DNA of 64,000 nt, from assembly GCA_041560205.1 (NCBI GenBank), contig JBFFBV010000014.1, positions 3,811-67,810 of the forward strand, written 5' to 3'. The position numbers were made by a program, and so were the translations under genes. Under the pieces are notes generated by a model. It was not told where the DNA came from and made no database searches. It worked only from the letters and a program-made list of their open reading frames with translations. Below, piece after piece: positions 5,975-17,365 of this stretch. Every line of letters starts with the position of its first letter. Position 1 is the first letter of the stretch. Origin of the DNA: Candidatus Sulfomarinibacter sp. (lineage in GTDB: Bacteria; Acidobacteriota; Thermoanaerobaculia; Thermoanaerobaculales; Sulfomarinibacteraceae).

Positions 5975-6044
5975 TCGGAATGACCCTCCAACGGCGTCGA
6001 GTTGCCATATCGAGAGGGTCGGAGCCGACAGAGAGACCAGACCT

Positions 6045-6890
6045 ATGCCGAGCAACGATCAGAAGCTCATATTCGCCGCGGTAGCCGCCCTGCTGGCGGT
6101 CGCTCTCGGGTGCACGTCCAGCGGTCCCAGCACCTCGCAGGCGCCTCCCGAGACCCCGGAGAGGAAGCCGCCGGCGACCGGTGCTACCGGTGGAGAGCAG
6201 GGCGAACAGGGGCGGGACGGCGGCGGCCAGGGTGGCGGCGGCACGGGCAGCGGCGCGAGTGGCGGTGAAGGATCCGAAGGATCGTCTTCGGGGCAAGATG
6301 GAGCGGCAGGCGGCGCCGGGGATTCAGCGACCGAGGGTGGGGCGTCACACCAGAGCGCTTCCGGTGGTGCCGGCCAGCCCGGCGGTTCTCCGGCCGGAAG
6401 TCAGCGTCCGGCAGGCTCCCCCACCACGGGCGACGAGGCGGCCTCCACGCTCGACGACAGGCTCAAGGGGTCGCTCGAGGAATTCGATCAACAGATGCGC
6501 GAAGAGATGGAACGCCTGGCCGAAGAAAAGGAGGCCGCAGAGGTTGCCGGCGAGCGCGCCTCCGGCAGTGAGGCGGGCTCTGCAAGCGCTTCGAGCGGGG
6601 GAGCTTCCGGAGAGTCGAGCGCCGGGAACCGATCGGCATCGGGCGGCACGGATGGGAGTGCGGAGGAGGGGGGCGATTCAGCCGGCTCCGTCGGTGGCTC
6701 GGGGCCGGGAGCATCCGGATCGGACCGGGTGCCGGCCGACGTCGGTGATGGATCAGACGACGACATCGTAGCTCGCCAGCTCCGCGAGGCCGCGATGGCC
6801 GAGGACGACCCGGAGCTGAGGGCGAAGCTGTGGGAGGAGTACCGCCGGTACAAGGCCTCGCTCGGCGCCTCGGGCAAGGACGGTGCCTGA
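6045..6890 (+). CDS. lipoprotein with long Gly/Ser/Ala/Glu-rich disordered region
   Basis: Start moved to ATG 6045. Lipobox 'LLAVALGC'. Has a low-complexity core and a conserved-looking helical tail 'DDDIVARQLREAAMAEDDPELRAKLWEEYRRYK'. Confidence 0.5.
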   Translation: MPSNDQKLIFAAVAALLAVALGCTSSGPSTSQAPPETPERKPPATGATGGEQGEQGRDGGGQGGGGTGSGASGGEGSEGSSSGQDGAAGGAGDSATEGGASHQSASGGAGQPGGSPAGSQRPAGSPTTGDEAASTLDDRLKGSLEEFDQQMREEMERLAEEKEAAEVAGERASGSEAGSASASSGGASGESSAGNRSASGGTDGSAEEGGDSAGSVGGSGPGASGSDRVPADVGDGSDDDIVARQLREAAMAEDDPELRAKLWEEYRRYKASLGASGKDGA

Positions 6891-8155
6891 TGCGACACCG
6901 GATCGGTCGACGTCGATGGCCAGTCACGGGGACGGTCCTGGCTCTTCTCCTCGGGAGCGGCTGCGCCTCGCAAAATCCCTCGGGGACAGCATCCGTGCCC
7001 GCGATTCAGGCGGCGCAGGAAATTCCTCGAGAACAACTTTTGGACGTCGGCGTCACGGTCTTCGACCCCGGCTTGCCGCCCGAAGGTCAGCCGGTGCCCG
7101 AAGACGTCTTTCCGGAGCTGCGCAAGGCGGAGGCCAGGTTCCAGGCCATCCAGCTGATGGAAACCATACAGAGCACCGGCCAGTGGGGCGCAGTCCGCGT
7201 TCTCCCGGCGGGGCACGGCACGACCGATCTCAGGGTGTCGGGAACGATCCTGCTGTCCACCGGTCTCAAGCTCGCCCTCGACATCCGTGCGGTGGACTCA
7301 CGAGGTAAGGTCTGGCTCGAGCGACGTTACCGAGCTCAGGCCGACGATCTGGCGTATATGGGCAGTGGGATCGAGAGGCGCGACCCCTTCCAGTCGATCT
7401 ACAACGAGATCTCCAACGACCTCCTCGAGGTCCGGACCAAGCTTCGCGCAGGCGAGCCGCAGGAGATCCGACAGGTCTCGAGGCTTCTCTTCGCCGCTGA
7501 TCTCGCGCCCGATATCTTCGAGGGCTATCTGACCACAAACACGAAGGGGCGGACGATCGTCAAGCGGCTGCCGGCGCGCGGCGACCCGATGATCTCGCGG
7601 GTCGACACCATCCGGGCGAGTGAAAACCTCTTCATCGACACCCTCGACCAAAACTACGCCTCGTTCTTCGCCACGATGGAGGAGCCGTACGGGAGCTGGC
7701 GCAAGTACACCTACGAGGAGGAAAAGGCCTACAAGGCGCTCAAACGCAAGGCCTTGACGCAACAGATCCTGGGTGGTCTGGCGATCCTCGGCGCCGCCCT
7801 CGCGGACCCCGGTTCGCCTGCAGCGTCGGTTGCCCGCGACGCCGCCATGATCGGCGGCATGGCCGCCATCCACGCCGGAATCGCGACCTCCAAGGAAGCC
7901 AAGATCCACGCCGAGGCGATCCGCGAGCTCGCCGCGTCGGTGGAGACCGAGCTCGAACCCGTCGTCATCGAGGTCAAGGGTCAGACCCTGCGCCTCTCGG
8001 GCTCTGCCGAGACCCAGTACGAGGAGTGGCGACGTCTGCTGCGCGAGATCTGGGCCACCGAGACCGGTCTGCCCGTGGATCCCAACCAGCCCGGTGCGAC
8101 CGTGGGCGGTGCGGCAGGCGCCAGCTCTGTGAACGACCCTCCGGGCTTGCGGTAG
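6890..8155 (+). CDS. lipoprotein, unknown function
   Basis: ATGA overlap with previous gene. 'VLALLLGSGCASQ' lipobox. Globular N-domain and C-terminal Gly/Ala-rich hydrophobic helix. Confidence 0.55.
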   Translation: MRHRIGRRRWPVTGTVLALLLGSGCASQNPSGTASVPAIQAAQEIPREQLLDVGVTVFDPGLPPEGQPVPEDVFPELRKAEARFQAIQLMETIQSTGQWGAVRVLPAGHGTTDLRVSGTILLSTGLKLALDIRAVDSRGKVWLERRYRAQADDLAYMGSGIERRDPFQSIYNEISNDLLEVRTKLRAGEPQEIRQVSRLLFAADLAPDIFEGYLTTNTKGRTIVKRLPARGDPMISRVDTIRASENLFIDTLDQNYASFFATMEEPYGSWRKYTYEEEKAYKALKRKALTQQILGGLAILGAALADPGSPAASVARDAAMIGGMAAIHAGIATSKEAKIHAEAIRELAASVETELEPVVIEVKGQTLRLSGSAETQYEEWRRLLREIWATETGLPVDPNQPGATVGGAAGASSVNDPPGLR

Positions 8156-8158
8156 GCG

Positions 8159-9256
8159 ATGGACGGAGGCAGGCACAAACCACAGCTGCAGCCCCCGCCA
8201 CGCGTGCCCGCAGCGGGGGGGGCCGACCCGGGGGCCGGTTCCAAACAACCAGGGGCGCGGACCGGCATGCAAGCCATGCGTATCGCCGCAATCGCCGCCA
8301 TGGTCCTCGCATTGATCTTCGTCTTCGTGGTCCTTCCGCGATGGCAGGAAGGGCGACAGGATCGTCTGAGGGATTCAGCCGGGCTCAAGCCGTCGCCCAA
8401 TCCACGGACACCGATTCAAGACGCGGGTCGACCCCTTCCGCCTGTGGAATCCACTCCTCTGGAGCCCAGTTCGCCACCGACTGCCACCACTACCCCGGCG
8501 CCGACACCCTACCGCCCGCCTCGGGAGAACCCGCAGCGCCAACAGTCGGCCGCCGAGCGTCAGTTCGTCGATGCCATGTCCGACGGTCTCGCGGCGCTCG
8601 AGCAACGGCAGTGGCAGGCCGCAACCGACGCCTTCGAGCGCGCGTCGCGGCTGCGCCCGGAGGCACCCGAGGTTACTGATGGGCTTGCCCGTGCGAAGGC
8701 GGGCCAGCGCTTGGAAACCATCGCCGACGGTCTCCGGCGAGCGCAATCGCTCGAGCAGCGCGAAGCGTGGCGGGAGGCCGAATCGACCTACTCGGCGGTG
8801 TTGGCGATCGATCCCGAGTCCGCGCCCGCCCTCGCAGGACAGCGCAGGACCGAGGCGCGGGCCGCTCTCGACGAGAAGCTCGAGTATCACATCGCCAACC
8901 CGGCCCGCCTCACCAACGAGGACGTCTTTGCTGACGCCTCCTCGGCCCTCGACGAGGCGATGGAGACCCTTCCGAGTGGGCCTCGGCTCGAATCGCAGGT
9001 CGGCCGTCTCGAGGCCCTCCTCGAAGAGGCTTCGACGCCGGTGCCGGTCGTCCTGGAGTCGGACGCGCTGACCGAGGTCGTGGTGTATCGCTTCGGCCGC
9101 CTGGGCACCTTCATCCGTCACGAGATCAGTCTCAAACCAGGTACCTACACCGTGGTCGGGAGCCGCAACGGCTTTCGCGACGTGCGCCTCCAGCTGGTCG
9201 TCAATCCCGGGTCTCCACCCGAGCCACTCGTGGTACGGTGCACGGAAGGTTTATGA
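8159..9256 (+). CDS. membrane-anchored protein with TPR-like helical repeats and C-terminal beta-sandwich
   Basis: TM helix 'IAAIAAMVLALIFVFVVL' (alternative start ATG 8267), Pro-rich linker, and TPR-like 'WQAATDAFERASRLRPEAPE...WREAESTYSAVLAIDPESAPA'. The tail is PEGA/CarboxypepD_reg-like: 'LKPGTYTVVGSRNGFRDVRLQLVV'. Confidence 0.5.
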   Translation: MDGGRHKPQLQPPPRVPAAGGADPGAGSKQPGARTGMQAMRIAAIAAMVLALIFVFVVLPRWQEGRQDRLRDSAGLKPSPNPRTPIQDAGRPLPPVESTPLEPSSPPTATTTPAPTPYRPPRENPQRQQSAAERQFVDAMSDGLAALEQRQWQAATDAFERASRLRPEAPEVTDGLARAKAGQRLETIADGLRRAQSLEQREAWREAESTYSAVLAIDPESAPALAGQRRTEARAALDEKLEYHIANPARLTNEDVFADASSALDEAMETLPSGPRLESQVGRLEALLEEASTPVPVVLESDALTEVVVYRFGRLGTFIRHEISLKPGTYTVVGSRNGFRDVRLQLVVNPGSPPEPLVVRCTEGL

Positions 9257-11679
9257 ACATTCTGGTGACCAGCGAGATCGGTGGGCGCCGCCACGTCTAC
9301 GCCGAGGACGACCTGCCCTTGAGCGTGGGAGGGGCCTCCTGCCACGTCGCGCTGCCCGGCCTCGCCGACGAGAGCACGGTCGCTTACCTTGGCCACGAGG
9401 ACGGCGAGCCCTTCATCCAACCGGCGGAGAAGATCCCGGCGGCGACGCCACTGAGCTGCAACGGCGTGCCACTCACCGCGTCACGGTGGTTGGGTGACGG
9501 CGACGAGATCGGCGTCGGCTACAGCCGAATTCGCTTCGAGATTTCCGGCGACACCGTCCGCATCACCGCCGTCGGCAGCGCGGCGGAAGAGCCGCCGCAT
9601 GCCTCGACGGAGGAACCCGACTCGTCAAAGGCAGCGTCGAAAGAGCGGGTCATCGATGCGGCAGACTTCCGGCCGAGGTGGCAAACACCGCCAAAGGGCT
9701 CGAGGCTGATGGTGCGCCCACGCTCGGTGCTCGTGTTTGCGGTCATCGCGCTGCTTGCATTCGGCGCGTGGTTCGTACTCACGGCACATGCCGTCCGCGT
9801 CGAGACCGAGCCCCCGGCCGACTCGATCGAGATCCGGGGCGCTTGGCTCAGGCCGAAGATCGGTGGCAGCTATCTCCTGCGTCCCGGATCCTACACGCTC
9901 CGTGCGGAGCTCGAGGGCTATCGCGGCCTCACCGCGCAACTCGAGGTCGACTCCGACACCCCATCGGTGGTGGGTTATGTCCTCGAGCCGCTGGGCGGGT
10001 TGCTGTCGGTATTTTCGGAACCGGTCGACGGTGCCGACATCAGCATCGACGGCACCGCGTCCGGCACCACCCCGGCGAGGGATATCGAGCTCGGCGCGGG
10101 TGACCACGAGGTCGAGATCACGGCGCCGCTTCATCTGCCCTACCGGACCACCCTCCGCTTCGAGCCGGGCGATCCGCCACGCGAGCTCACGGCCGAGCTG
10201 GTGCCCAATTGGGCGCCGATCACCGTGGCCAGCTCTCCGACAGGCGCCTCCGTCTCGATGGACGGAATCGGCATGGGATCGACACCACTGGAGGGGCGGG
10301 TCGAGGCCGGTGAGCGGGTTCTCGAGATCCGGCGGCCGGGTTTCAAGCCATCGGTTCGGCGTTTCGCCGTGACCGCTGGCGAGGCGATCGACCTCGGGAC
10401 CGTTCAGCTCGTGCCCGAGGACGGGCAGCTGGCAGTGGTCTCCGATCCTCCTGGGGCCACCGTGACCCTCAACGGCACCTTTCGGGGCACGACCCCAATC
10501 GAGCTCGAACTGGCACCGGGGCCGAATTACGAGATCACGGTCTCCAAAGCTGGCCACGCCACCTTCACCACCGAGGTCGGAATCTCATCGACACAGCGGA
10601 CGGAAGTGCGGGCCGAGCTCGATATGCTGACGGGCGCCGTCACGATCAGCTCACGGCCGCCTCGCGCCGAAATCCTCATCGATGGCATGGTGGTCGGCAC
10701 CACCGACCAGACCCTCGAGCTGGATGCCCGCCCTCACCAGGTGGAGGTCCGGCGGGAGGGTTACCTTCCCTTCCGTACCGTCCTCACACCCGAGCCCGGC
10801 CTGACTCAGGCGGTTCACGCGGAGCTCAAGGAAGCGGGCCCGGCAGGACTCGCCGCGGCCATCCAGACCCCCCAGGGAGGACAGTTGGTACTCGTGGGCC
10901 CGGGGCGCTTCACGATGGGCGCAGCTCGCCGCGAGCCGGGTCGACGCGCCAACGAGGTTCTGCGCGAGGTTGAAATCACCCGCCCCTTCTATCTCGGCAC
11001 GCGGGAGGTCACCAACAAGGAGTTCCGCGAGTTCCGCGCCGCGCACCGCTCGGGTTCAGCCGGCAGCTTCAACTTGGAGATCGACCATCACCCGGTTGTC
11101 AACATCACCTGGGACGATGCCGCGAGGTACTGCAATTGGCTTTCGGAACGCGCAGGCCTGCCGCCCGTCTACGTCGAGAGGGGCGGCACCATGCTCGCCC
11201 GCACTCCGTTGCCTCAAGGGTTCCGGCTGCCGACCGAGGCCGAGTGGGCCTGGGCCGCCCGCTATCCCGATTCGGCAACGGCTCGCAAGTACGCCTGGGG
11301 AGATGCTCTTCCGGTGCCTTCCGAAGCCGGCAACTACGGAGATTCGACGGGGATGTCGGTGCTGGGCGAAGCCCTTCCCAGCTACCGTGACGGCTACGGA
11401 GCCACCGCCCCGGCCGGCAGCTTCCAGGCGAACCCACTCGGGCTCTACAACCTCGGCGGTAACGTCTCGGAATGGGTCAACGATTTCTACACCGTCACAC
11501 CGACGCCGCCGAAGGAGGTCGCAAAGGACCCCATGGGACCTTCGGAGGGGGCGTACCATGTCATCAGAGGTGCGAGCTGGATGGATACCAAGATGACCGA
11601 GCTCAGGCTCAGCTATCGCGACTACGGCTACGGGGCGCGGCCCGACGTCGGTTTTCGCATCGCGCGCAGCGCGCAGTAA
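9253..11679 (+). CDS. FHA - TM - 5x PEGA - FGE-sulfatase (SUMF1/GldK-like) domain protein
   Basis: ATGA overlap at 9253. N-terminal FHA pattern 'LPLSVGGASCHVALPG...NGVPL...LGDGDEIGVGYSRIRF', then TM 'VLVFAVIALLAFGAWFVL'. Five repeats follow of the type 'ISIDGTASGTTP...LGAGDHEVEI'. C-terminus: 'RFTMGA...RPFYLGTREVTNKEF...HPVVNITWDDAARYCNWLS...RLPTEAEWAWAAR...GNVSEWVND...IRGASW'. Confidence 0.8.
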   Translation: MNILVTSEIGGRRHVYAEDDLPLSVGGASCHVALPGLADESTVAYLGHEDGEPFIQPAEKIPAATPLSCNGVPLTASRWLGDGDEIGVGYSRIRFEISGDTVRITAVGSAAEEPPHASTEEPDSSKAASKERVIDAADFRPRWQTPPKGSRLMVRPRSVLVFAVIALLAFGAWFVLTAHAVRVETEPPADSIEIRGAWLRPKIGGSYLLRPGSYTLRAELEGYRGLTAQLEVDSDTPSVVGYVLEPLGGLLSVFSEPVDGADISIDGTASGTTPARDIELGAGDHEVEITAPLHLPYRTTLRFEPGDPPRELTAELVPNWAPITVASSPTGASVSMDGIGMGSTPLEGRVEAGERVLEIRRPGFKPSVRRFAVTAGEAIDLGTVQLVPEDGQLAVVSDPPGATVTLNGTFRGTTPIELELAPGPNYEITVSKAGHATFTTEVGISSTQRTEVRAELDMLTGAVTISSRPPRAEILIDGMVVGTTDQTLELDARPHQVEVRREGYLPFRTVLTPEPGLTQAVHAELKEAGPAGLAAAIQTPQGGQLVLVGPGRFTMGAARREPGRRANEVLREVEITRPFYLGTREVTNKEFREFRAAHRSGSAGSFNLEIDHHPVVNITWDDAARYCNWLSERAGLPPVYVERGGTMLARTPLPQGFRLPTEAEWAWAARYPDSATARKYAWGDALPVPSEAGNYGDSTGMSVLGEALPSYRDGYGATAPAGSFQANPLGLYNLGGNVSEWVNDFYTVTPTPPKEVAKDPMGPSEGAYHVIRGASWMDTKMTELRLSYRDYGYGARPDVGFRIARSAQ

Positions 11680-11692
11680 TTGGAGACGAGAC

Positions 11693-11905
11693 ATGAAACC
11701 GATCAACCGATTCCTCATCATGCTTGGACTGGTGCTCGTTGTGACGGCCCTGCTGGGCACGGATGGACCGACGCCGGATGCCGGGGCCTCACCGCAGGAG
11801 GCCTCCGAGGCCGAGCAATCGACGACCGAGGAGCCGCTGCCGGAATTTCAACCCAGTGAACGGCTGCCCGCGGACAGTGCGGTCGCGTTTCCGACCGACA
11901 TCTGA
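11693..11905 (+). CDS. small secreted/membrane-anchored acidic protein
   Basis: 70 aa, N-terminal hydrophobic helix 'FLIMLGLVLVVTALLG', acidic Pro-rich tail. Sits 13 nt after the previous stop and 7 nt before the next start. Confidence 0.4.
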   Translation: MKPINRFLIMLGLVLVVTALLGTDGPTPDAGASPQEASEAEQSTTEEPLPEFQPSERLPADSAVAFPTDI

Positions 11906-11912
11906 GGCAAGC

Positions 11913-12749
11913 ATGCGTCGCACCGATACTGTCGATTTCGTTTTCCAGCTGGCGTCACTCGTTGTCGCCCTGATCATCGTCCACGCGTTCTACGTGACCT
12001 TGGTGCGACCGCGAGCTGACGCATTCTCCGCCGAGCAGGCGGCCCTGATGGCGGCCGATCCCGAGTACGTCCAGGAGCGCTCGGTGTGGGTGATCGTACG
12101 CGACTTCGAGCAGGAGGCGTGCTTCGTGCTGATGCTGTGGGCGATGGCGATCATGGCCTCCAAAGGATTGACCACGGCGCGCGAAAGCCAGCTCCTCGAG
12201 GCCGACCTGGTGCCGGTGGCGGACGGCGTACGCATCCTTCCTGAAGACTCGCGCGAGTACGCGCGCCAGGTCGAGGCCCTTCCCGCCAGTCAGCGTCGGC
12301 TCCTCCTGCCGAGGGTGGTGCTGTCCGCCTTGAGACGATTCGGTGCCACCGGCAGCATCCAGGACGCCTCGGACACGGCCCACAGCACCGCCGAGACCGA
12401 GGCGGAGCGGCTCGACTCCGAGCTGGCCATGGTGCGCTACATCGCGTGGGCCATTCCCTCGATAGGATTCATCGGCACCGTACGCGGCATCGGTGCCGCT
12501 CTCGGCCAGGCCCACCGGGCGGTCGAAGGAGACATCACGGGCGTGACACGAAACCTCGGCGTCGCCTTCAATTCGACCTTTGTCGCCCTGTTGATCTCGA
12601 TCGTCCTGATGTTCCTCCTTCACCAGCTCCAGCTGCGGCAAGAACGTCTGGTTCTCGACACCGAGGCGTACGTGGACTCGCATCTCATCCGCCATCTCCA
12701 GGCAAGCGCCGCTCAACCGAATCAGACCCAGCGCGGCGCCACGAGCTGA
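11913..12749 (+). CDS. MotA/TolQ/ExbB-family proton-channel protein
   Basis: Start moved to ATG 11913. C-terminal signature 'IAWAIPSIGFIGTVRGIGAALG...GVAFNSTFVALLISIVLMFLLHQL' matches the MotA_ExbB TM3-TM4 pattern, with two further N-terminal TM helices. Confidence 0.8.
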   Translation: MRRTDTVDFVFQLASLVVALIIVHAFYVTLVRPRADAFSAEQAALMAADPEYVQERSVWVIVRDFEQEACFVLMLWAMAIMASKGLTTARESQLLEADLVPVADGVRILPEDSREYARQVEALPASQRRLLLPRVVLSALRRFGATGSIQDASDTAHSTAETEAERLDSELAMVRYIAWAIPSIGFIGTVRGIGAALGQAHRAVEGDITGVTRNLGVAFNSTFVALLISIVLMFLLHQLQLRQERLVLDTEAYVDSHLIRHLQASAAQPNQTQRGATS

Positions 12750-12754
12750 GCGCC

Positions 12755-14101
12755 GTGAAGCAATCGGCCATCGCCCTCGAGTTGGTAGACGCCGGGCTCC
12801 AGTTCGTGAGCTCGCGAGGGCAGATCTCCAGGCCGAGCCCGGGGCTCGCCCTGGTCGAAGGCGGGGAGCTGGCGGTGGGGCTCGACGCCGAGGCTGTCGC
12901 GCGTCTCAAACCACGGCGTCTCCACAGCCGGTTCTGGCAGGACCTCGGCACCGACTCGCTGGGTCGTCCGTTCCCCGCGTATCTGAGGACCGCGGATCTC
13001 GCGCATGCCCACCTCAAGGCGACGTGGGAAGCGGACGGCGGGGACGCCGAGGAGGTCATCGTCGCGGTGCCCGGTTGCTACACCGAGGACCAGCTCTCCC
13101 TGATCTTGGGTATCGCCAGGGAGCTGGCGATCCCAGTGAGCGGTCTGGTTGACGCTGCCGTTGCCTCGGCCGCAGACCGGGAGGTCGCACCTCATTGCCT
13201 CCACCTCGACCTTCAGCTCCACCGCGCGGTGCTGACGGTGCTCGAGCACGGTGAGGAGATCACCCGTACGACCGTCCGCGTAGAGCCGCGCGTCGGTCTG
13301 CTCGGTCTTCGCGATCTCTGGGCGCGTGTCATCGCCCAGACATTCGTGCGCGCCACCCGCTTCGATCCACTCCACCTCGCGGCAACGGAACAGGTGCTTT
13401 ACGCGCAACTGGCGGCCCACCTGGAGGCGCTCATCGAAGGTGATTCGACCCAGGTAAGAATCGCATCAGGTGGACGGCAGCACGTCATCGAGCTGGAACA
13501 AGGCCGCATCGTCGATGCCGCTGCACCCGCGTACGAAACTCTTTCGACGGTGGTGAACGACCACTTGGACCCGGATAGCACCACCTTGCTGCTCAGCCAT
13601 CGTGCGGCCGCGCTGCCCGGGCTCGTCCAGCACGTCGAAGAGCGCACCAGTGCCACCGTCATCGTCCTTCATCCCGCCGCCGCCGGGAGCGGCGCGCTCG
13701 CCCACGCCGACGGGATCCGGTCGCCGGGGCCATCGGTGGCCTTCGTGACGCACCTTCCCGGCCTCGACGCGAGGCCGCCGGGCCCGGTCACCGTGCCAGT
13801 CACACCGCCGCTCGAGGACGGCCGCCATCTGCCCACCCACCTCGTCCTCGAGGGGGTGGCCCACCGGATCGAATCCAACCTGCTGATCCTGCTCCCCGAA
13901 GGCATCGAACGGGCGGAACAGGGTGAAGGCGCGACGACCGTCCGCCGCCTCGCCGGGCAGGCCGTACTCGAGGCCCCGGCCGAGGCCGGGGTGACCCTCA
14001 ACGGCGAGCCCATCGAGGGAAGGACGGCGCTGGCGCCGGGGGACCGACTTCGCCTGGCCGCTTCCGATGGGGAAATCCTCGTCGTGACCATGTCGGAGTG
14101 A
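12755..14101 (+). CDS. degenerate Hsp70/actin-fold (ASKHA) protein with C-terminal FHA domain
   Basis: GTG 12755, 5 nt after the motA-like stop. Hsp70-like blocks are 'VIVAVPGCYTEDQLSLILGIARELAIPVSGLVDAAVASA', 'LHLDLQLHRAVLTVLE' (the GGG loop is replaced) and 'LLLSHRAAALPGLVQHVEE' (the GGS loop is replaced). C-terminal FHA-like: 'HLVLEGVAHRI...VTLNGEPIEGRTALAPGDRLRL'. Confidence 0.6.
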   Translation: MKQSAIALELVDAGLQFVSSRGQISRPSPGLALVEGGELAVGLDAEAVARLKPRRLHSRFWQDLGTDSLGRPFPAYLRTADLAHAHLKATWEADGGDAEEVIVAVPGCYTEDQLSLILGIARELAIPVSGLVDAAVASAADREVAPHCLHLDLQLHRAVLTVLEHGEEITRTTVRVEPRVGLLGLRDLWARVIAQTFVRATRFDPLHLAATEQVLYAQLAAHLEALIEGDSTQVRIASGGRQHVIELEQGRIVDAAAPAYETLSTVVNDHLDPDSTTLLLSHRAAALPGLVQHVEERTSATVIVLHPAAAGSGALAHADGIRSPGPSVAFVTHLPGLDARPPGPVTVPVTPPLEDGRHLPTHLVLEGVAHRIESNLLILLPEGIERAEQGEGATTVRRLAGQAVLEAPAEAGVTLNGEPIEGRTALAPGDRLRLAASDGEILVVTMSE

Positions 14102-14104
14102 CCC

Positions 14105-15196
14105 GTGCGCGCGCGAAGTGTCACGCCCGTCGGACTGTCGTTTTTGGACGCGATGACCTGTGGATTGGGGGCGGTGATCCTCCTCTTCATGATTATCAAC
14201 GCGGCGGTTCGGGACCACTCGGTCCAGGTCACCAGCGATCTCCAGGCCGAGGTCAATCGGCTCGAGCGCGAGGTCCTGGAGGGTCACCGCAATCTGGTGG
14301 AGCTCCGCAATTCGATCCGCGAAACCGACGAGGAGCGGGTCCTGACCCAGGGTCTGGCGCTACGGTTGATCGAGAGCCTCGAGCTGATCCGTGTCGAGCT
14401 CGCGACCTTCGAGGCCTCGACTCTCGCCCGCCGCGAGCACATCAATCAGCTGCAGTCCGACCTGCGTTCGCTCGAGGAGGACGCTCGCCGCCTGTCGGCG
14501 TCGCTGCCGTCCGACGAGACGCCCGGAGACCGGGTCCGCGTCCACATCGGCGACGGTGACCGCCAGTACCTCACCGGGCTCAAGGTCGGTGGCAACCGGA
14601 TCCTTTTTCTCGTCGATGCGTCGGCGAGCATGCTCGGAAGCACGATCGTCAACGTCATCCGGCGCCGCAATCTGCCCGACAAGGACAAGGTGCGCGCCGC
14701 CAAGTGGCGACAGGCGTTGGCCACCGTCGACTGGCTCTCGACCCAGATTCCGCGAGACAGCCGATTCCAGATCTACGCCTTCAACACCACCGCCAGGCCG
14801 GTGGTGCCCGACAGCGGCGGGCAGTGGCTGGACGGTTCCGATCGCGAGGTTCTCGACGATGCTGTCGGATACATGAAAGAGGTCGTACCCGCCGACGGTA
14901 CGAGCCTGTTCCATGCCTTCGCGGCGATCTCGGAGCTCAACCCGAGACCCGACAACATCATGCTCCTGACAGACGGTCTGCCGACCGTGGGGAAGAACCC
15001 GGCACGCACCACCACGATCTCGGCCCGCCAGCGCTCGAAGCTCTTCAACCGCGCCGTCGAACAGGTGCCGCCCGGCATTCCTGTCAACGTGATCCTCTTG
15101 CCGATGGAGGGTGACCCAATGGCGGCCAGCGCCTTTTGGAAGCTGGCCATCGGCTCCCGGGGTTCGTTCATGAGCATTGCGGAGGACTGGCCGTGA
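14105..15196 (+). CDS. ExbD/TolR-like TM helix - coiled coil - VWA domain protein (paralogue 1)
   Basis: N-terminus 'RARSVTPVGLSFLDAMTCGLGAVILLFMII', then a heptad-rich segment of about 100 aa. The VWA domain has MIDAS 'LFLVDASASM', 'ADGTSL' and 'MLLTDGLPT'. Confidence 0.75.
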   Translation: MRARSVTPVGLSFLDAMTCGLGAVILLFMIINAAVRDHSVQVTSDLQAEVNRLEREVLEGHRNLVELRNSIRETDEERVLTQGLALRLIESLELIRVELATFEASTLARREHINQLQSDLRSLEEDARRLSASLPSDETPGDRVRVHIGDGDRQYLTGLKVGGNRILFLVDASASMLGSTIVNVIRRRNLPDKDKVRAAKWRQALATVDWLSTQIPRDSRFQIYAFNTTARPVVPDSGGQWLDGSDREVLDDAVGYMKEVVPADGTSLFHAFAAISELNPRPDNIMLLTDGLPTVGKNPARTTTISARQRSKLFNRAVEQVPPGIPVNVILLPMEGDPMAASAFWKLAIGSRGSFMSIAEDWP

Positions 15197-16200
15197 GGCG
15201 CGCACGTCGGGATCTCCAGGTCTTCTCGCTGTCGTTCCTGGACGTCGTCTGCTGCGGCTTCGGCGCCATCATCCTCCTGCTCGTCCTGACCAAGTTGGGC
15301 GAGCCGCAGGCGATCGAGGAAGCCCGTCGAGACCTCGACCGCCTGCTCATCGAGCTCGAGGCCGAGCTCTATGAAATCCGGGGCGAAACCGCGATTCTCG
15401 ACCGCCGGCTGCAGTCGAAGGTGGAGCAGCTGTCGGAGGAGCAGAGCCACATCGCGCGCCTGCGCGGCGATCTTTCGGAGCTCAGGGGAGAGTTCGCTGC
15501 CAGCGAGGAGCTGTCCGAGGTCCAGGACATCCTCGAGGGTCGCATGCTGGCTGCTCAACAGCAGCTCACCGAAGAGATGCGGAGGCTGCTCGAACAGAGC
15601 CGGCGACGCCGGGAACCAGAAGCGATGGTCGGCGGCATTCCGGTCGACAGCGAGTACATCATCTTCGTCATCGACACCTCGGGGTCCATGTTCCACTACG
15701 CCTGGCCCGCGGTTGTCCAAAAAATGACGCAGGTTCTCGACACCTACCCGCGGGTCAAGGGCCTACAGGTCGTGAACGACATGGGCCAGTACATGTACTC
15801 CCAGTACGCGGGGAAGTGGATCCCGGACACGCCCGGGCGCCGCAAAGCGGTGATCGCCCGGCTGCGCTCCTGGAGCGTGTTTTCGAACTCGAGCCCGGTC
15901 GAAGGCATCAACCGCGCCATCCGCACCTTCGCCAGCCCGGACTACCGAATCTCCATCTACGTTTTCGGCGACGAGTTCACCGGCACCTCGATCGATGAGG
16001 TCGTGCGCGAGGTCGACCGCCTCAACACCCGGGGCAGTGACGGGGAGCGCCGGGTCAGAATCCATGCCGTCGGCTTCCCGACCGTGTTCTCGGTCGCCGG
16101 TGCCGGACAACACACCGGGGTCCGCTTCGCCACATTGATGCGGATCCTCTGCCGCCGCAACGACGGCACCTTCGTGGGCCTCAACTCGACGAGCCCCTAG
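15193..16200 (+). CDS. ExbD/TolR-like TM helix - coiled coil - VWA domain protein (paralogue 2)
   Basis: GTGA overlap at 15193-15196. N-terminus 'RRARRDLQVFSLSFLDVVCCGFGAIILLLVL', a coiled coil, and a VWA domain with 'IIFVIDTSGSM'. Confidence 0.75.
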   Translation: MRRARRDLQVFSLSFLDVVCCGFGAIILLLVLTKLGEPQAIEEARRDLDRLLIELEAELYEIRGETAILDRRLQSKVEQLSEEQSHIARLRGDLSELRGEFAASEELSEVQDILEGRMLAAQQQLTEEMRRLLEQSRRRREPEAMVGGIPVDSEYIIFVIDTSGSMFHYAWPAVVQKMTQVLDTYPRVKGLQVVNDMGQYMYSQYAGKWIPDTPGRRKAVIARLRSWSVFSNSSPVEGINRAIRTFASPDYRISIYVFGDEFTGTSIDEVVREVDRLNTRGSDGERRVRIHAVGFPTVFSVAGAGQHTGVRFATLMRILCRRNDGTFVGLNSTSP

Positions 16201-16244: not shown

Positions 16245-16409
16245 CCACGATGCAAGATACACGTCCATCCACCCCCACTCACGGACGCGCTTGATTCTTT
16301 TTGAAACCCGAATCCTGCATCCGGGTGTGCGGGCGGGTGGGTGCATCTTGTATCCGGGTGGGTGGACGGGCGGGTGCATCTTGGATCTGGGTCGTCGGGC
16401 GGGTCGGGG
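16245..16409. repeat. composite inverted/tandem repeat element (core GATGCAAGATACA / TGCATCTTGTATCC), copy 1
   Basis: One reverse-orientation unit (16245-16285), an AT-richer spacer, then three imperfect direct units of about 32 nt (16314-16409). TGCATCTTGTATCC lies at 16342-16355. Confidence 0.7.
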
Positions 16410-16415
16410 GGTACA

Positions 16416-17159
16416 ATGGGAGGAGTGAACGAATCTCAATCCAACCCCGACCCGATCCGGCTGTTGGTTGTCGAGGATGACGCGCCACTCGCCGATGGCC
16501 TCTGTCGCAACCTCGAGCTCGAGGGATTCGCGGTCCACCACCTGGGCACCGGCGAGGCGGCCCTGGTCGAGCTCGCCGAGCCGACGGCACAGTTCGAGCT
16601 GCTGATTCTCGACATCATGCTCCCCGGCATCGACGGCTTCGAAGTGTGCCGCCGCCTCCGCGGCGACGACAACCTCATTCCGATCCTCTTCCTCACCGCC
16701 CGCGGCAGCGATGCGGACCGCATCCTCGGCCTCCAGCTCGGAGCGGACGACTACTTGACGAAGCCTTTCCTGGTCGAGGAGCTCGTCCTGCGGGTGCGCG
16801 GAATCCTGCGACGGGCCGAATGGTCCCGCACCCCCGCCCGAACCGGACCGGTGGTGCAGGTCGGCACGAGCGAGGTGGATCTGAACACGATGCGGGCCAG
16901 CACGCCAGCGGGCGCCGTCGCGCTCACCGAGCGCGAGGTGATGCTTGTCCGTTTCTTTTCAGAGAACGACGGCCGCGTCCTGACGCGTGGTGAGCTGCTC
17001 GAGCGGGTGTGGGGATACACCTTCGACACCTCGACCCGGACGCTCGACACCTTCGTCCATCGCCTCCGCAAGCACTTCGAGGAGGACCCGCGACACCCGC
17101 TTCACTTCCACACCGTCCGCGGAGTGGGCTACCGGTTCACCTCCGAACCCGAGGAATGA
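16416..17159 (+). CDS. OmpR/PhoB-family response regulator (orphan)
   Basis: 'IRLLVVEDDAPLADGL...LLILDIMLPGIDGFEVCRRLR...PILFLTARG...LGADDYLTKPF', then a wHTH 'LTEREVMLVRFF...LTRGELLERVWGY...RTLDTFVHRLRKHF...TVRGVGYRF'. Confidence 0.9.
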   Translation: MGGVNESQSNPDPIRLLVVEDDAPLADGLCRNLELEGFAVHHLGTGEAALVELAEPTAQFELLILDIMLPGIDGFEVCRRLRGDDNLIPILFLTARGSDADRILGLQLGADDYLTKPFLVEELVLRVRGILRRAEWSRTPARTGPVVQVGTSEVDLNTMRASTPAGAVALTEREVMLVRFFSENDGRVLTRGELLERVWGYTFDTSTRTLDTFVHRLRKHFEEDPRHPLHFHTVRGVGYRFTSEPEE

Positions 17160-17215
17160 TGTTCTTCTGCGGTTTTCGAATTCCACTTCTGACGCGCGAC
17201 CGAGCAGAAAAAGAA

Positions 17216-17365
17216 CCACGATACAAGATGCAAAATACACGGCCGCCCTCACGCACAATTCCGACGGTGGCACGTCCGAGGGGACGGTCGCTCGGATCCT
17301 GCATCTTGTATCCGGGTGAATGGTTGGGCGGGTGCATCTTGTATCCCGGAACCGACGGACGCGTG
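17216..17365. repeat. composite inverted repeat element, copy 2
   Basis: GATACAAGATGCA at 17220-17232 (reverse orientation), a spacer, then TGCATCTTGTATCC at 17300-17313 and 17333-17346. Confidence 0.7.

Follow-up and report, generated by a model that had tools for sequence, protein, structure and literature searches.

Two von Willebrand factor A proteins with an invariant transmembrane aspartate next to a TolQ-like gene in Candidatus Sulfomarinibacter: a candidate axle of an ion-driven envelope motor

The characterised branches of the MotA/ExbB/TolQ family are the flagellar, Ton, Tol and Zorya systems, and a 5:2 architecture is also known from the type IX motor GldL/GldM. Here we analyse two adjacent genes, VWA1 and VWA2, in a stretch of 64,000 nucleotides from Candidatus Sulfomarinibacter sp. 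(Acidobacteriota; assembly GCA_041560205.1, contig JBFFBV010000014.1, positions 3,811 to 67,810), which is called the window below and whose numbering is used throughout. Both products combine an N-terminal transmembrane (TM) helix bearing an invariant Asp with a coiled-coil stalk and a head of the von Willebrand factor A (VWA) type, and a gene for a TolQ/MotA-like protein, F, is found in the same cluster. With moderate confidence we propose a 5:2-type ion-driven motor in which F supplies the five-chain ring and VWA1 and VWA2 together make up a heterodimeric axle, since the TM Asp is invariant and the adjoining TolQ/MotA-like gene has no ExbD/TolR partner.

The closest described proteins are the "TPH-vWA" pairs of a 2025 paper in Mol Biol Evol (PMC12204202). 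According to its section on this family, these are heterologous pairs that adjoin tolQ-like genes, have a conserved Asp in a "transpore helix", occur without tolR, exbD or motB, lack the SHLS motif and are accompanied by a conserved Thr in the pentamer; in AlphaFold3 (AF3) co-folding the vWA pair sat inside a pentamer of the TolQ-like protein, and its two Asp were surrounded by a ring of threonines. In the window pair, too, a single N-terminal TM helix tethers the vWA domain at the C-terminus, as seen with AlphaFold2 (AF2) and Foldseek; the TM Asp is likewise conserved; a tolQ-like neighbour is present with no tolR, exbD or motB gene; and the paralogues are paired, with neither His nor SHLS in either helix. 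Two invariant Thr positions of F, aligned to TolQ T145 and T178, may be compared with the AF3 threonine ring. By every defining feature tested, the window pair is of the TPH-vWA kind, as judged by the published description of the family, which was seeded from Idiomarina loihiensis. The family was reported mainly from Proteobacteria and Verrucomicrobia (PMC12204202), whereas the window pair is closest to Acidobacteriota-type metagenome-assembled genomes (MAGs). The architecture, which a sequence-only reading of this DNA had considered unusual, had therefore been described already, and the publication of the basic idea limits the surprise. The coiled-coil stalk, the metal ion-dependent adhesion site (MIDAS) and the other seven genes of the cluster are not mentioned in the section of that paper on TPH-vWA. 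A search of other literature on the VWA architecture or the whole cluster found none, and the term TPH-vWA was used by this paper only.

Several better known systems are similar in part. MotB and PomB, too, place a single TM helix with a conserved Asp inside a pentamer of the MotA type, and F has four predicted TM segments, as MotA does; unlike MotB and PomB, the VWA pair has no plug or OmpA-like peptidoglycan-binding domain in cis. GldM/PorM with GldL/PorL resemble the proposed arrangement, since the dimeric partner crosses the membrane once, spans the periplasm with a long extension and sits inside a five-chain ring; GldK/PorK, like protein D of the cluster described below, is an FGE-fold (formylglycine-generating enzyme) protein encoded in the same gene cluster. 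However, GldM uses Arg and GldL uses Glu, versus Asp and Thr here, and GldL is not a PF01618 protein while F is; the analogy is architectural only. The Myxococcus gliding motor, AglQ/AglS with AglR, combines a TolQ-like protein with two different TolR-like inner subunits and provides a precedent for a heteromeric axle; these subunits are ordinary TolR homologues without the coiled coil or VWA domain of the pair studied here.

Transmembrane helices and the TolQ-like neighbour

The features that bear on the pore are the following:
14105-15196, forward strand: VWA1 gene, GTG start, TGA stop, 363 aa; from a basic N-terminus through the Asp15-bearing TM helix and a coiled-coil stalk to the VWA head
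14129-14197, forward strand: VWA1 TM helix, about residues 9-31, VGLSFLDAMTCGLGAVILLFMII; Asp15 codon at 14147-14149
15193-16200, forward strand: VWA2 gene, GTG start inside the GTGA overlap with the VWA1 stop, 335 aa; architecture as in VWA1
15223-15291, forward strand: VWA2 TM helix, about residues 11-33, FSLSFLDVVCCGFGAIILLLVLT; Asp17 codon at 15241-15243
11913-12749, forward strand: F, 278-aa channel protein of the MotA/TolQ/ExbB-like type with four predicted TM segments; presumed pentameric partner

The N-terminus of VWA1 is MRARSVTPVGLSFLDAMTCGLGAVILLFMII and that of VWA2 is VRRARRDLQVFSLSFLDVVCCGFGAIILLLVL. The open reading frames (ORFs) and the alignments confirm what had been read from the letters alone, namely that each protein starts with a basic stretch followed by a TM helix with an Asp. 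GGAG/GGAGG motifs resembling Shine-Dalgarno sequences are located 7-9 nt upstream of both starts, and independent gene calls on identical public contigs reproduced the 363-aa VWA1 and the 4-nt overlap.

Among 89 diverse VWA1-type representatives, which are 32-52% identical to the query, residues F13, D15, G22 and L26 are present without exception, and the same holds for S14, L16, D17, C21, G24, L28 and L29 in 44 VWA2 orthologues. The Asp thus showed no variation in either set. In a set of 117 VWA1 representatives it was found in 116, the lone exception having a garbled N-terminus. The motif of the family helix can be written as L-S-F-L-D-x-M-x-C-G-F-G-A-V-x-L-L-F. When conservation was measured as the mean frequency of the commonest residue per segment, the TM helix ranked first in both families, followed by the VWA domain and the stalk (0.73, 0.63 and 0.54, respectively, for VWA1; 0.86, 0.71 and 0.59 for VWA2). 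In D and C, by contrast, two neighbouring proteins compared in the same 41 genomes, the TM anchor is the least conserved segment (0.45 and 0.30, respectively). This suggests that the VWA helices are more than mere membrane anchors.

Lys and Arg residues are more frequent before the helix than after it (3.3 vs 1.4 in the VWA1 family, 4.1 vs 1.9 in the VWA2 family). From this charge distribution an N-in, C-out topology is predicted, which places the VWA heads in the periplasm and not in the cytoplasm.

A nearly invariant Cys is found four residues past the TM Asp in both paralogues (C19, 14159-14161, and C21, 15253-15255) and is followed by G-F-G-A. The spacing of four residues would put it one turn up on the same helix face as the Asp.

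F matches PF01618 (MotA_ExbB) with an E-value of 2e-13 and 50.6 bits, against a cut-off of 22.9. It is nearer in sequence to TolQ (E 1.8e-4) than to MotA (0.011), and TolQ is also the best PDB match of the F family profile (E 0.0026). T189 and T222 of F, which align to TolQ T145 and T178, are invariant in 37 orthologues. The residues essential for motor function are Thr145/Thr178 of TolQ with Asp23 of TolR, and Thr148/Thr181 of ExbB with Asp25 of ExbD (PMC12905483). Related loci were compared using stop-to-stop ORFs and phmmer, not curated annotation. In 73 of 80 such loci F is encoded upstream of VWA1 and VWA2, and the other seven are cut by contig ends. Searches of the 80 loci and of the 64-kb window with phmmer and profile hidden Markov models (HMMs), filters off, gave no homologue of ExbD, TolR or MotB. 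F is a MotA/TolQ-family protein with an intact pore and without a conventional inner subunit, and the adjoining VWA pair offers the missing element.

A Zorya-like defence system was also considered for this combination and rejected. PADLOC gave only marginal ZorA matches on the generic MotA domain (E 0.006) and none for the VWA proteins, and synteny across phyla also favours a housekeeping envelope system.

The sequence-only reading had called the helix "ExbD/TolR-type". As a functional analogy the label stands, given the basic N-terminus and the Asp in an N-in helix; as a statement of homology it could not be confirmed, the profile tests being null. An HMM profile of 35 N-termini, compared with all PDB chain sequences, retrieved no ExbD, TolR, MotB, PomB or ZorB chain; none of the 35 N-termini matched Pfam ExbD; neither the VWA1 nor the VWA2 ORF matched an ExbD/TolR HMM; and a regular expression for the canonical ExbD/TolR helix had no hit in the six frames of the window. 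Alignment of 133 N-termini with 115 ExbD/TolR sequences by hhalign did place Asp on Asp (sLSFLD.m on i.p.ldvl), over 8 columns with a probability of 0.9% (P=0.058), the ExbD/TolR set being mostly enterobacterial and its profile therefore taxonomically narrow. HMM, Pfam and hhalign gave no significant match of the helix to ExbD, TolR or MotB. The likeness is limited to the motif hydrophobic-hydrophobic-D-(V/I)-(M/L). The resemblance is positional and functional, with homology not demonstrable, and the motor reading consequently rests on analogy and context.

The analogy itself has several parts. ExbD and TolR (PF02472) share with the VWA pair an N-in single-pass helix with a basic N-terminus, a partner of the MotA/ExbB/TolQ family, and an Asp of the essential type located 3-5 residues into the helix, near its cytoplasmic end. 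Where ExbD and TolR have a small periplasmic alpha/beta domain, the VWA pair has a coiled coil, about 100 residues long, followed by a VWA domain, and it is proposed to be a heterodimer of paralogues and not a homodimer.

Paralogy, coiled-coil stalk and VWA heads

VWA1 and VWA2 are 25% identical (BLASTP, E 4e-8), and their family profiles match end to end (hhalign, probability 99.9%, E 1.5e-32, 317 columns); they are true full-length paralogues. The periplasmic parts consist of the following elements:
14198-14497, forward strand: VWA1 stalk, residues 32-131, running on from the TM helix; predicted local distance difference test (pLDDT) above 90 in the AF2 model
14582-15193, forward strand: VWA1 VWA domain, residues 160-363, delimited with AF2 and Foldseek
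14615-14629, forward strand: VWA1 MIDAS motif DASAS (D171, S173, S175), together with GT266S and TD290G
15673-15687, forward strand: VWA2 MIDAS motif DTSGS, residues 161-165, all five invariant in 44 orthologues, together with D260

The AF2 model of VWA1 (pLDDT 90.9) shows an unbroken helix from residue 8 to residue 131, a low-confidence linker and an alpha/beta domain at residues 160-363. The VWA2 model was built from homologues that are 71-92% identical, and with this shallower alignment its confidence is moderate: pLDDT is 71 overall and 80-90 in the domain, with helices at residues 14-34, 38-100 and 105-137. The stalk of about 100 aa, described beforehand as heptad-rich, does have the expected periodicity in both families. 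In the VWA1 family the strongest hydrophobicity period is exactly 3.50 residues, with a power of 52.7 compared to 6.6 +/- 4.0 for shuffled sequences, a value reached by none of 500 shuffles; the VWA2 family has a strong 3.5-residue period together with a 7/3 harmonic, reached by nine of 500 shuffles.

The stalk and the helix also bear on the possibility that VWA1 and VWA2 are force transducers of the TolA/TonB type, acting on the outside of a motor whose inner subunit is encoded elsewhere. A vWA family of this sort exists: the first family of PMC12204202, as described there, consists of TolA/TonB-like transducers with a His-containing SHLS motif and a Pro-rich linker, encoded with tolQ and two tolR-like genes. 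The window proteins have a heptad coiled coil where a Pro-rich linker would be expected, no SHLS and no His in their TM helices, and no tolR-like genes nearby in the 80 loci, which makes this explanation very improbable.

Pfam VWA matches of the window proteins are weak and below the cut-off, that of VWA2 to PF00092 having an E-value of only 0.019. Structure comparison was more informative: in Foldseek searches against PDB, VWA and integrin-I domains were the top matches for the models of both VWA1 (E about 3e-8) and VWA2 (3.5e-7), which settles the VWA fold of both proteins at the level of predicted models. A precomputed Pfam domain was present in none of the 120 best listed VWA2 relatives. 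The large VWA2 family is thus effectively missed by the Pfam VWA models, and domain-based surveys will under-count it.

The models, the Foldseek matches and the alignments together bear out the VWA fold with a DxSxS MIDAS motif in each protein, as had been suggested from the sequence. The DxSxS residues and D290 of VWA1 or D260 of VWA2 are invariant or nearly so. The MIDAS motif of VWA1 is complete by its sequence, T266 being the majority residue only (consensus GGTSL). In VWA2, where D260 is invariant in the 44 orthologues, the position expected to hold Thr is Ser-rich (SNSS), and the MIDAS of this protein is therefore probable but not certain.

VWA1-type proteins differ from VWA2 by a conserved insertion of about 20 residues just past DxSxS (14636-14701, residues 178-199, TIVNxIRRRN...KW). 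M176, K200 and W201 in this region are invariant. The insertion could cap or regulate the MIDAS site.

The structural matches raise the question of whether the helices serve only for anchoring and dimerisation, the two proteins being a membrane-tethered VWA scaffold of the BatA/BatB type on which a periplasmic complex is assembled with the tetratricopeptide repeat (TPR) protein and the lipoproteins of the cluster; F would then act by itself or have some other partner. Structures ranking among the closest to VWA1 include BatB (3ibs) and an aerotolerance VWA protein from Bacteroides (4jdu); like the window pair, BatA and BatB are bacterial VWA proteins that occur in pairs, are anchored in the membrane and, in the bat operons, have a TPR protein close by; the small-residue motif CGFGA suits helix-helix packing; and ExbD/TolR homology is not detectable. 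On the other hand, an invariant acidic residue within a TM helix is costly and is left unexplained by anchoring, and the helix is conserved above the VWA domain while the true anchors in the cluster are poorly conserved. A pure scaffold would also leave F, a member of the MotA/ExbB family whose pore threonines are intact, with no inner subunit in 80 genomes. Furthermore, BatA and BatB are not linked to MotA/TolQ-like genes, and Pfam found no MoxR- or DUF58-type family among the nine cluster proteins. We consider a pure scaffold unlikely and retain the axle of a motor as the preferred role of the pair.

The nine-gene cluster and its distribution

The VWA pair forms the end of a cluster of nine genes, A to G followed by VWA1 and VWA2, which is conserved across phyla. 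Besides F, the upstream members are:
6042-6890, forward strand: A, first gene of the cluster, putative lipoprotein with acidic Gly/Ser/Glu-rich low-complexity sequence; lipobox VALGC identified by eye; start inferred
6890-8155, forward strand: B, putative lipoprotein; lipobox-like LLGSGC and signal peptide identified by eye; the inferred start is the ATG overlapping the A stop
8159-9256, forward strand: C, TM-anchored TPR protein, conserved in its cluster position
9253-11679, forward strand: D, 808 aa, with a divergent cytoplasmic FHA (forkhead-associated) domain, a TM segment, five PEGA domains and an FGE-sulfatase-like domain; conserved upstream of F
11693-11905, forward strand: E, small secreted protein of 70 aa with the conserved C-terminus EFQPSERLPADSAVAFPTDI; independently called gene
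12755-14101, forward strand: G, cytoplasmic accessory protein of 448 aa with a weakly Hsp70 nucleotide-binding-domain-like N-terminal part and a C-terminal FHA domain; independently called gene

Of the 78 loci that could be evaluated, 77 have VWA1 and VWA2 next to each other in unchanged order. Their 4-nt overlap, which had been taken as a sign of stoichiometric co-production, is present in the window in both gene calls but is not universal: it occurs in 38 of 77 loci, and elsewhere the genes are separated by a gap that is mostly <=35 nt but reaches 478 nt in Desulfobacterales. Translational coupling of the pair is therefore frequent but not a rule.

B has no Pfam match and is conserved in the cluster with E-values down to 1e-107. 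The TPR matches of C are weak in the window protein and clear in its orthologue from locus L077. D matches PEGA (E 1e-52) and FGE-sulfatase (E 1e-47) in Pfam, and the profile of its N-terminal part (9253-9560) matches FHA domains (Ki-67, E 1.7e-4). A special kinship of D with PorK/GldK was considered, as NCBIfam ranked GldK first (E 2e-32, far below the cut-off), and was ruled out: in PDB searches with the FGE-like domain, true FGE enzymes scored as well as PorK (E 3e-16) or better.

The FGE-sulfatase-like domain of D (10870-11679) contains no cysteine in its last 90 or so residues. True formylglycine-generating enzymes have both catalytic Cys in this C-terminal region. The domain is therefore probably non-catalytic, as in PorK/GldK.

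About 50 of 55 loci encode E in the interval between D and F (for example, L077 7452-7766 and L049 4402-4653). Its signal peptide is followed by a middle part that is hypervariable and either acidic or rich in Pro; E has a total length of 70-160 aa across loci and matched no known family. Its C-terminal 20 or so residues are kept across phyla, with the consensus F.P(S/T)E.(V/I).AD.(A/S)V(S/A)FP(V/T/I)DI-stop. One may speculate that E is a ligand for the MIDAS sites of the VWA heads or a peptide that binds by beta-strand addition. The profile of G matches FHA domains (E 8e-6) and SSB1/DnaK (E 3e-4) in PDB; its FHA domain (13800-14101) is recognised by Pfam in 24 of 39 orthologues, and the gene is missing from about 10 loci. 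The cluster showed no gene for a kinase or a phosphatase.

Directly 3' of VWA2, loci of Woeseiaceae contain a gene for an OmpA-family protein (PF00691, above cut-off) with glycine-zipper TM segments (L076 4742-5581; L051 4287-5060; L066 12160-12933; also L025, L073 and L075). This protein may provide in trans the peptidoglycan anchoring that MotB has in cis. The gene is absent from this position in the window, where a gene for an OmpR-type response regulator is found instead (16341-17159). The regulator gene also directly follows the pair in L001 and L002, the loci most similar to the window, and is missing in most related loci.

Three copies of a direct repeat of about 33 nt (core TGCATCTTGTATCCGGGTG) lie close to the annotated regulator start, either upstream or across it (16307-16407). 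Two more copies are located downstream of the regulator gene, and there is one inverted copy (17215-17232 and 17298-17349). The repeats may be binding sites of the regulator, or the true start of the regulator may lie further downstream.

These neighbours are relevant for an explanation which keeps the same geometry but makes the complex a gated ion channel or an envelope sensor, signalling via the FHA proteins and here also via the response regulator, instead of a rotary motor. The two cytoplasmic FHA domains in the cluster and the regulator directly after the pair in the window, L001 and L002 are consistent with signalling, as is the use of VWA domains as ligand sensors in many systems. However, about 10 loci lack G and most lack the regulator; the rigid coiled coil, which would continue the pore helix for about 15 nm, resembles a shaft; and all characterised members of the MotA/ExbB/TolQ family are, to our knowledge, energy transducers. 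A channel or sensor thus has a low probability in our estimate, and an ion-driven motor continues to be the reading that we prefer.

At least 590 of the species-representative genomes scanned contain a relative. In a database clustered at 90% identity, at least 5829 of 8000 scored candidates were VWA1 relatives, with 1293 clusters at 50% identity, and VWA2 had at least 8000 relatives. The closest among the matches listed comes from a "Deltaproteobacteria" MAG (87% identity), followed by Acidobacteriota and Vicinamibacteria. The family was also found in Gammaproteobacteria (Woeseiaceae, Steroidobacteraceae, Lysobacterales and Pseudomonadales) and in Desulfobacterales, Myxococcales, Kiritimatiellia and Isosphaeraceae; cultured hosts are Steroidobacter agaridevorans and Peristeroidobacter agariperforans (loci L074 and L077). 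The system is thus widespread in Acidobacteriota, Gammaproteobacteria, Desulfobacterota, Myxococcota and the PVC (Planctomycetes-Verrucomicrobia-Chlamydiae) group.

Proposed mechanism and meaning

In the motor that we propose, the N-terminal TM helix of each paralogue, one per chain, would be inserted into the F pentamer. D15 and D17, near the cytoplasmic end of the helices, would be the protonatable sites facing T189 and T222 of F, and proton flow would be converted to relative rotation or to conformational cycling. Each TM helix is predicted to run unbroken into its stalk, and the two stalks, each of about 100 residues, would pair as a heterodimeric coiled coil with a length of roughly 15 nm that would carry the two MIDAS-bearing VWA heads across the periplasm. 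There the heads might bind an acidic ligand in the periplasm or the outer membrane and exert force or torque on it. The cluster itself encodes candidate ligands, namely E, the PEGA/FGE-like protein D and the two lipoproteins, A and B. Gating or localisation of the motor would probably fall to the cytoplasmic FHA domains of D and G. An identical model had been put forward independently on the basis of the AF3 co-folding of a vWA pair with a TolQ-like pentamer (PMC12204202).

Several observations weigh against this proposal. The helix has no significant sequence or profile similarity to ExbD, TolR or MotB, and the resemblance comes down to five residues and their position; its C-G-F-G-A has no ExbD/TolR counterpart, those proteins carrying LVLLIIF there. 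F has Val where TolQ has Glu173. A gammaproteobacterial MAG (L061, 9089-13500) has D, E, F and VWA1, followed by unrelated small genes, without G and without an adjacent VWA2; either this locus results from a rearrangement or an assembly break, or a VWA1 homodimer can suffice, and the heterodimer may therefore not be obligatory. Finally, for no family member is a phenotype, ligand or structure on record.

A broader proposal, which we regard as possible but rather doubtful, is that all nine genes encode one trans-envelope machine. Its 5:2 axle would be a heterodimer of paralogues with MIDAS heads on a shaft of about 15 nm, moving a periplasmic partner, and it would be switched through phosphothreonine recognition by the FHA domains. 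The gripped partner might be the invariant acidic C-terminus of E or the PEGA/FGE-like array of D, the latter in parallel to the action of GldLM on GldKN. Such a system would represent a new functional class of envelope machine driven by the proton-motive force (PMF), that is, more than an ExbD variant.

Compared with the published prediction, the present analysis adds quantitative support, the details of the coiled coil and the MIDAS, the nine-gene cluster with E and the FHA modules, and cultured hosts. It singles out D15 and D17 of the VWA pair, T189 and T222 of F and the MIDAS serines as the residues on which function may depend. If the motor reading is true, the family would be a further branch of MotA/ExbB/TolQ systems, in which the inner subunit is fused to an adhesion-type VWA effector on a shaft. 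As a consequence of this direct fusion, force would be delivered without an adaptor like TonB or TolA.

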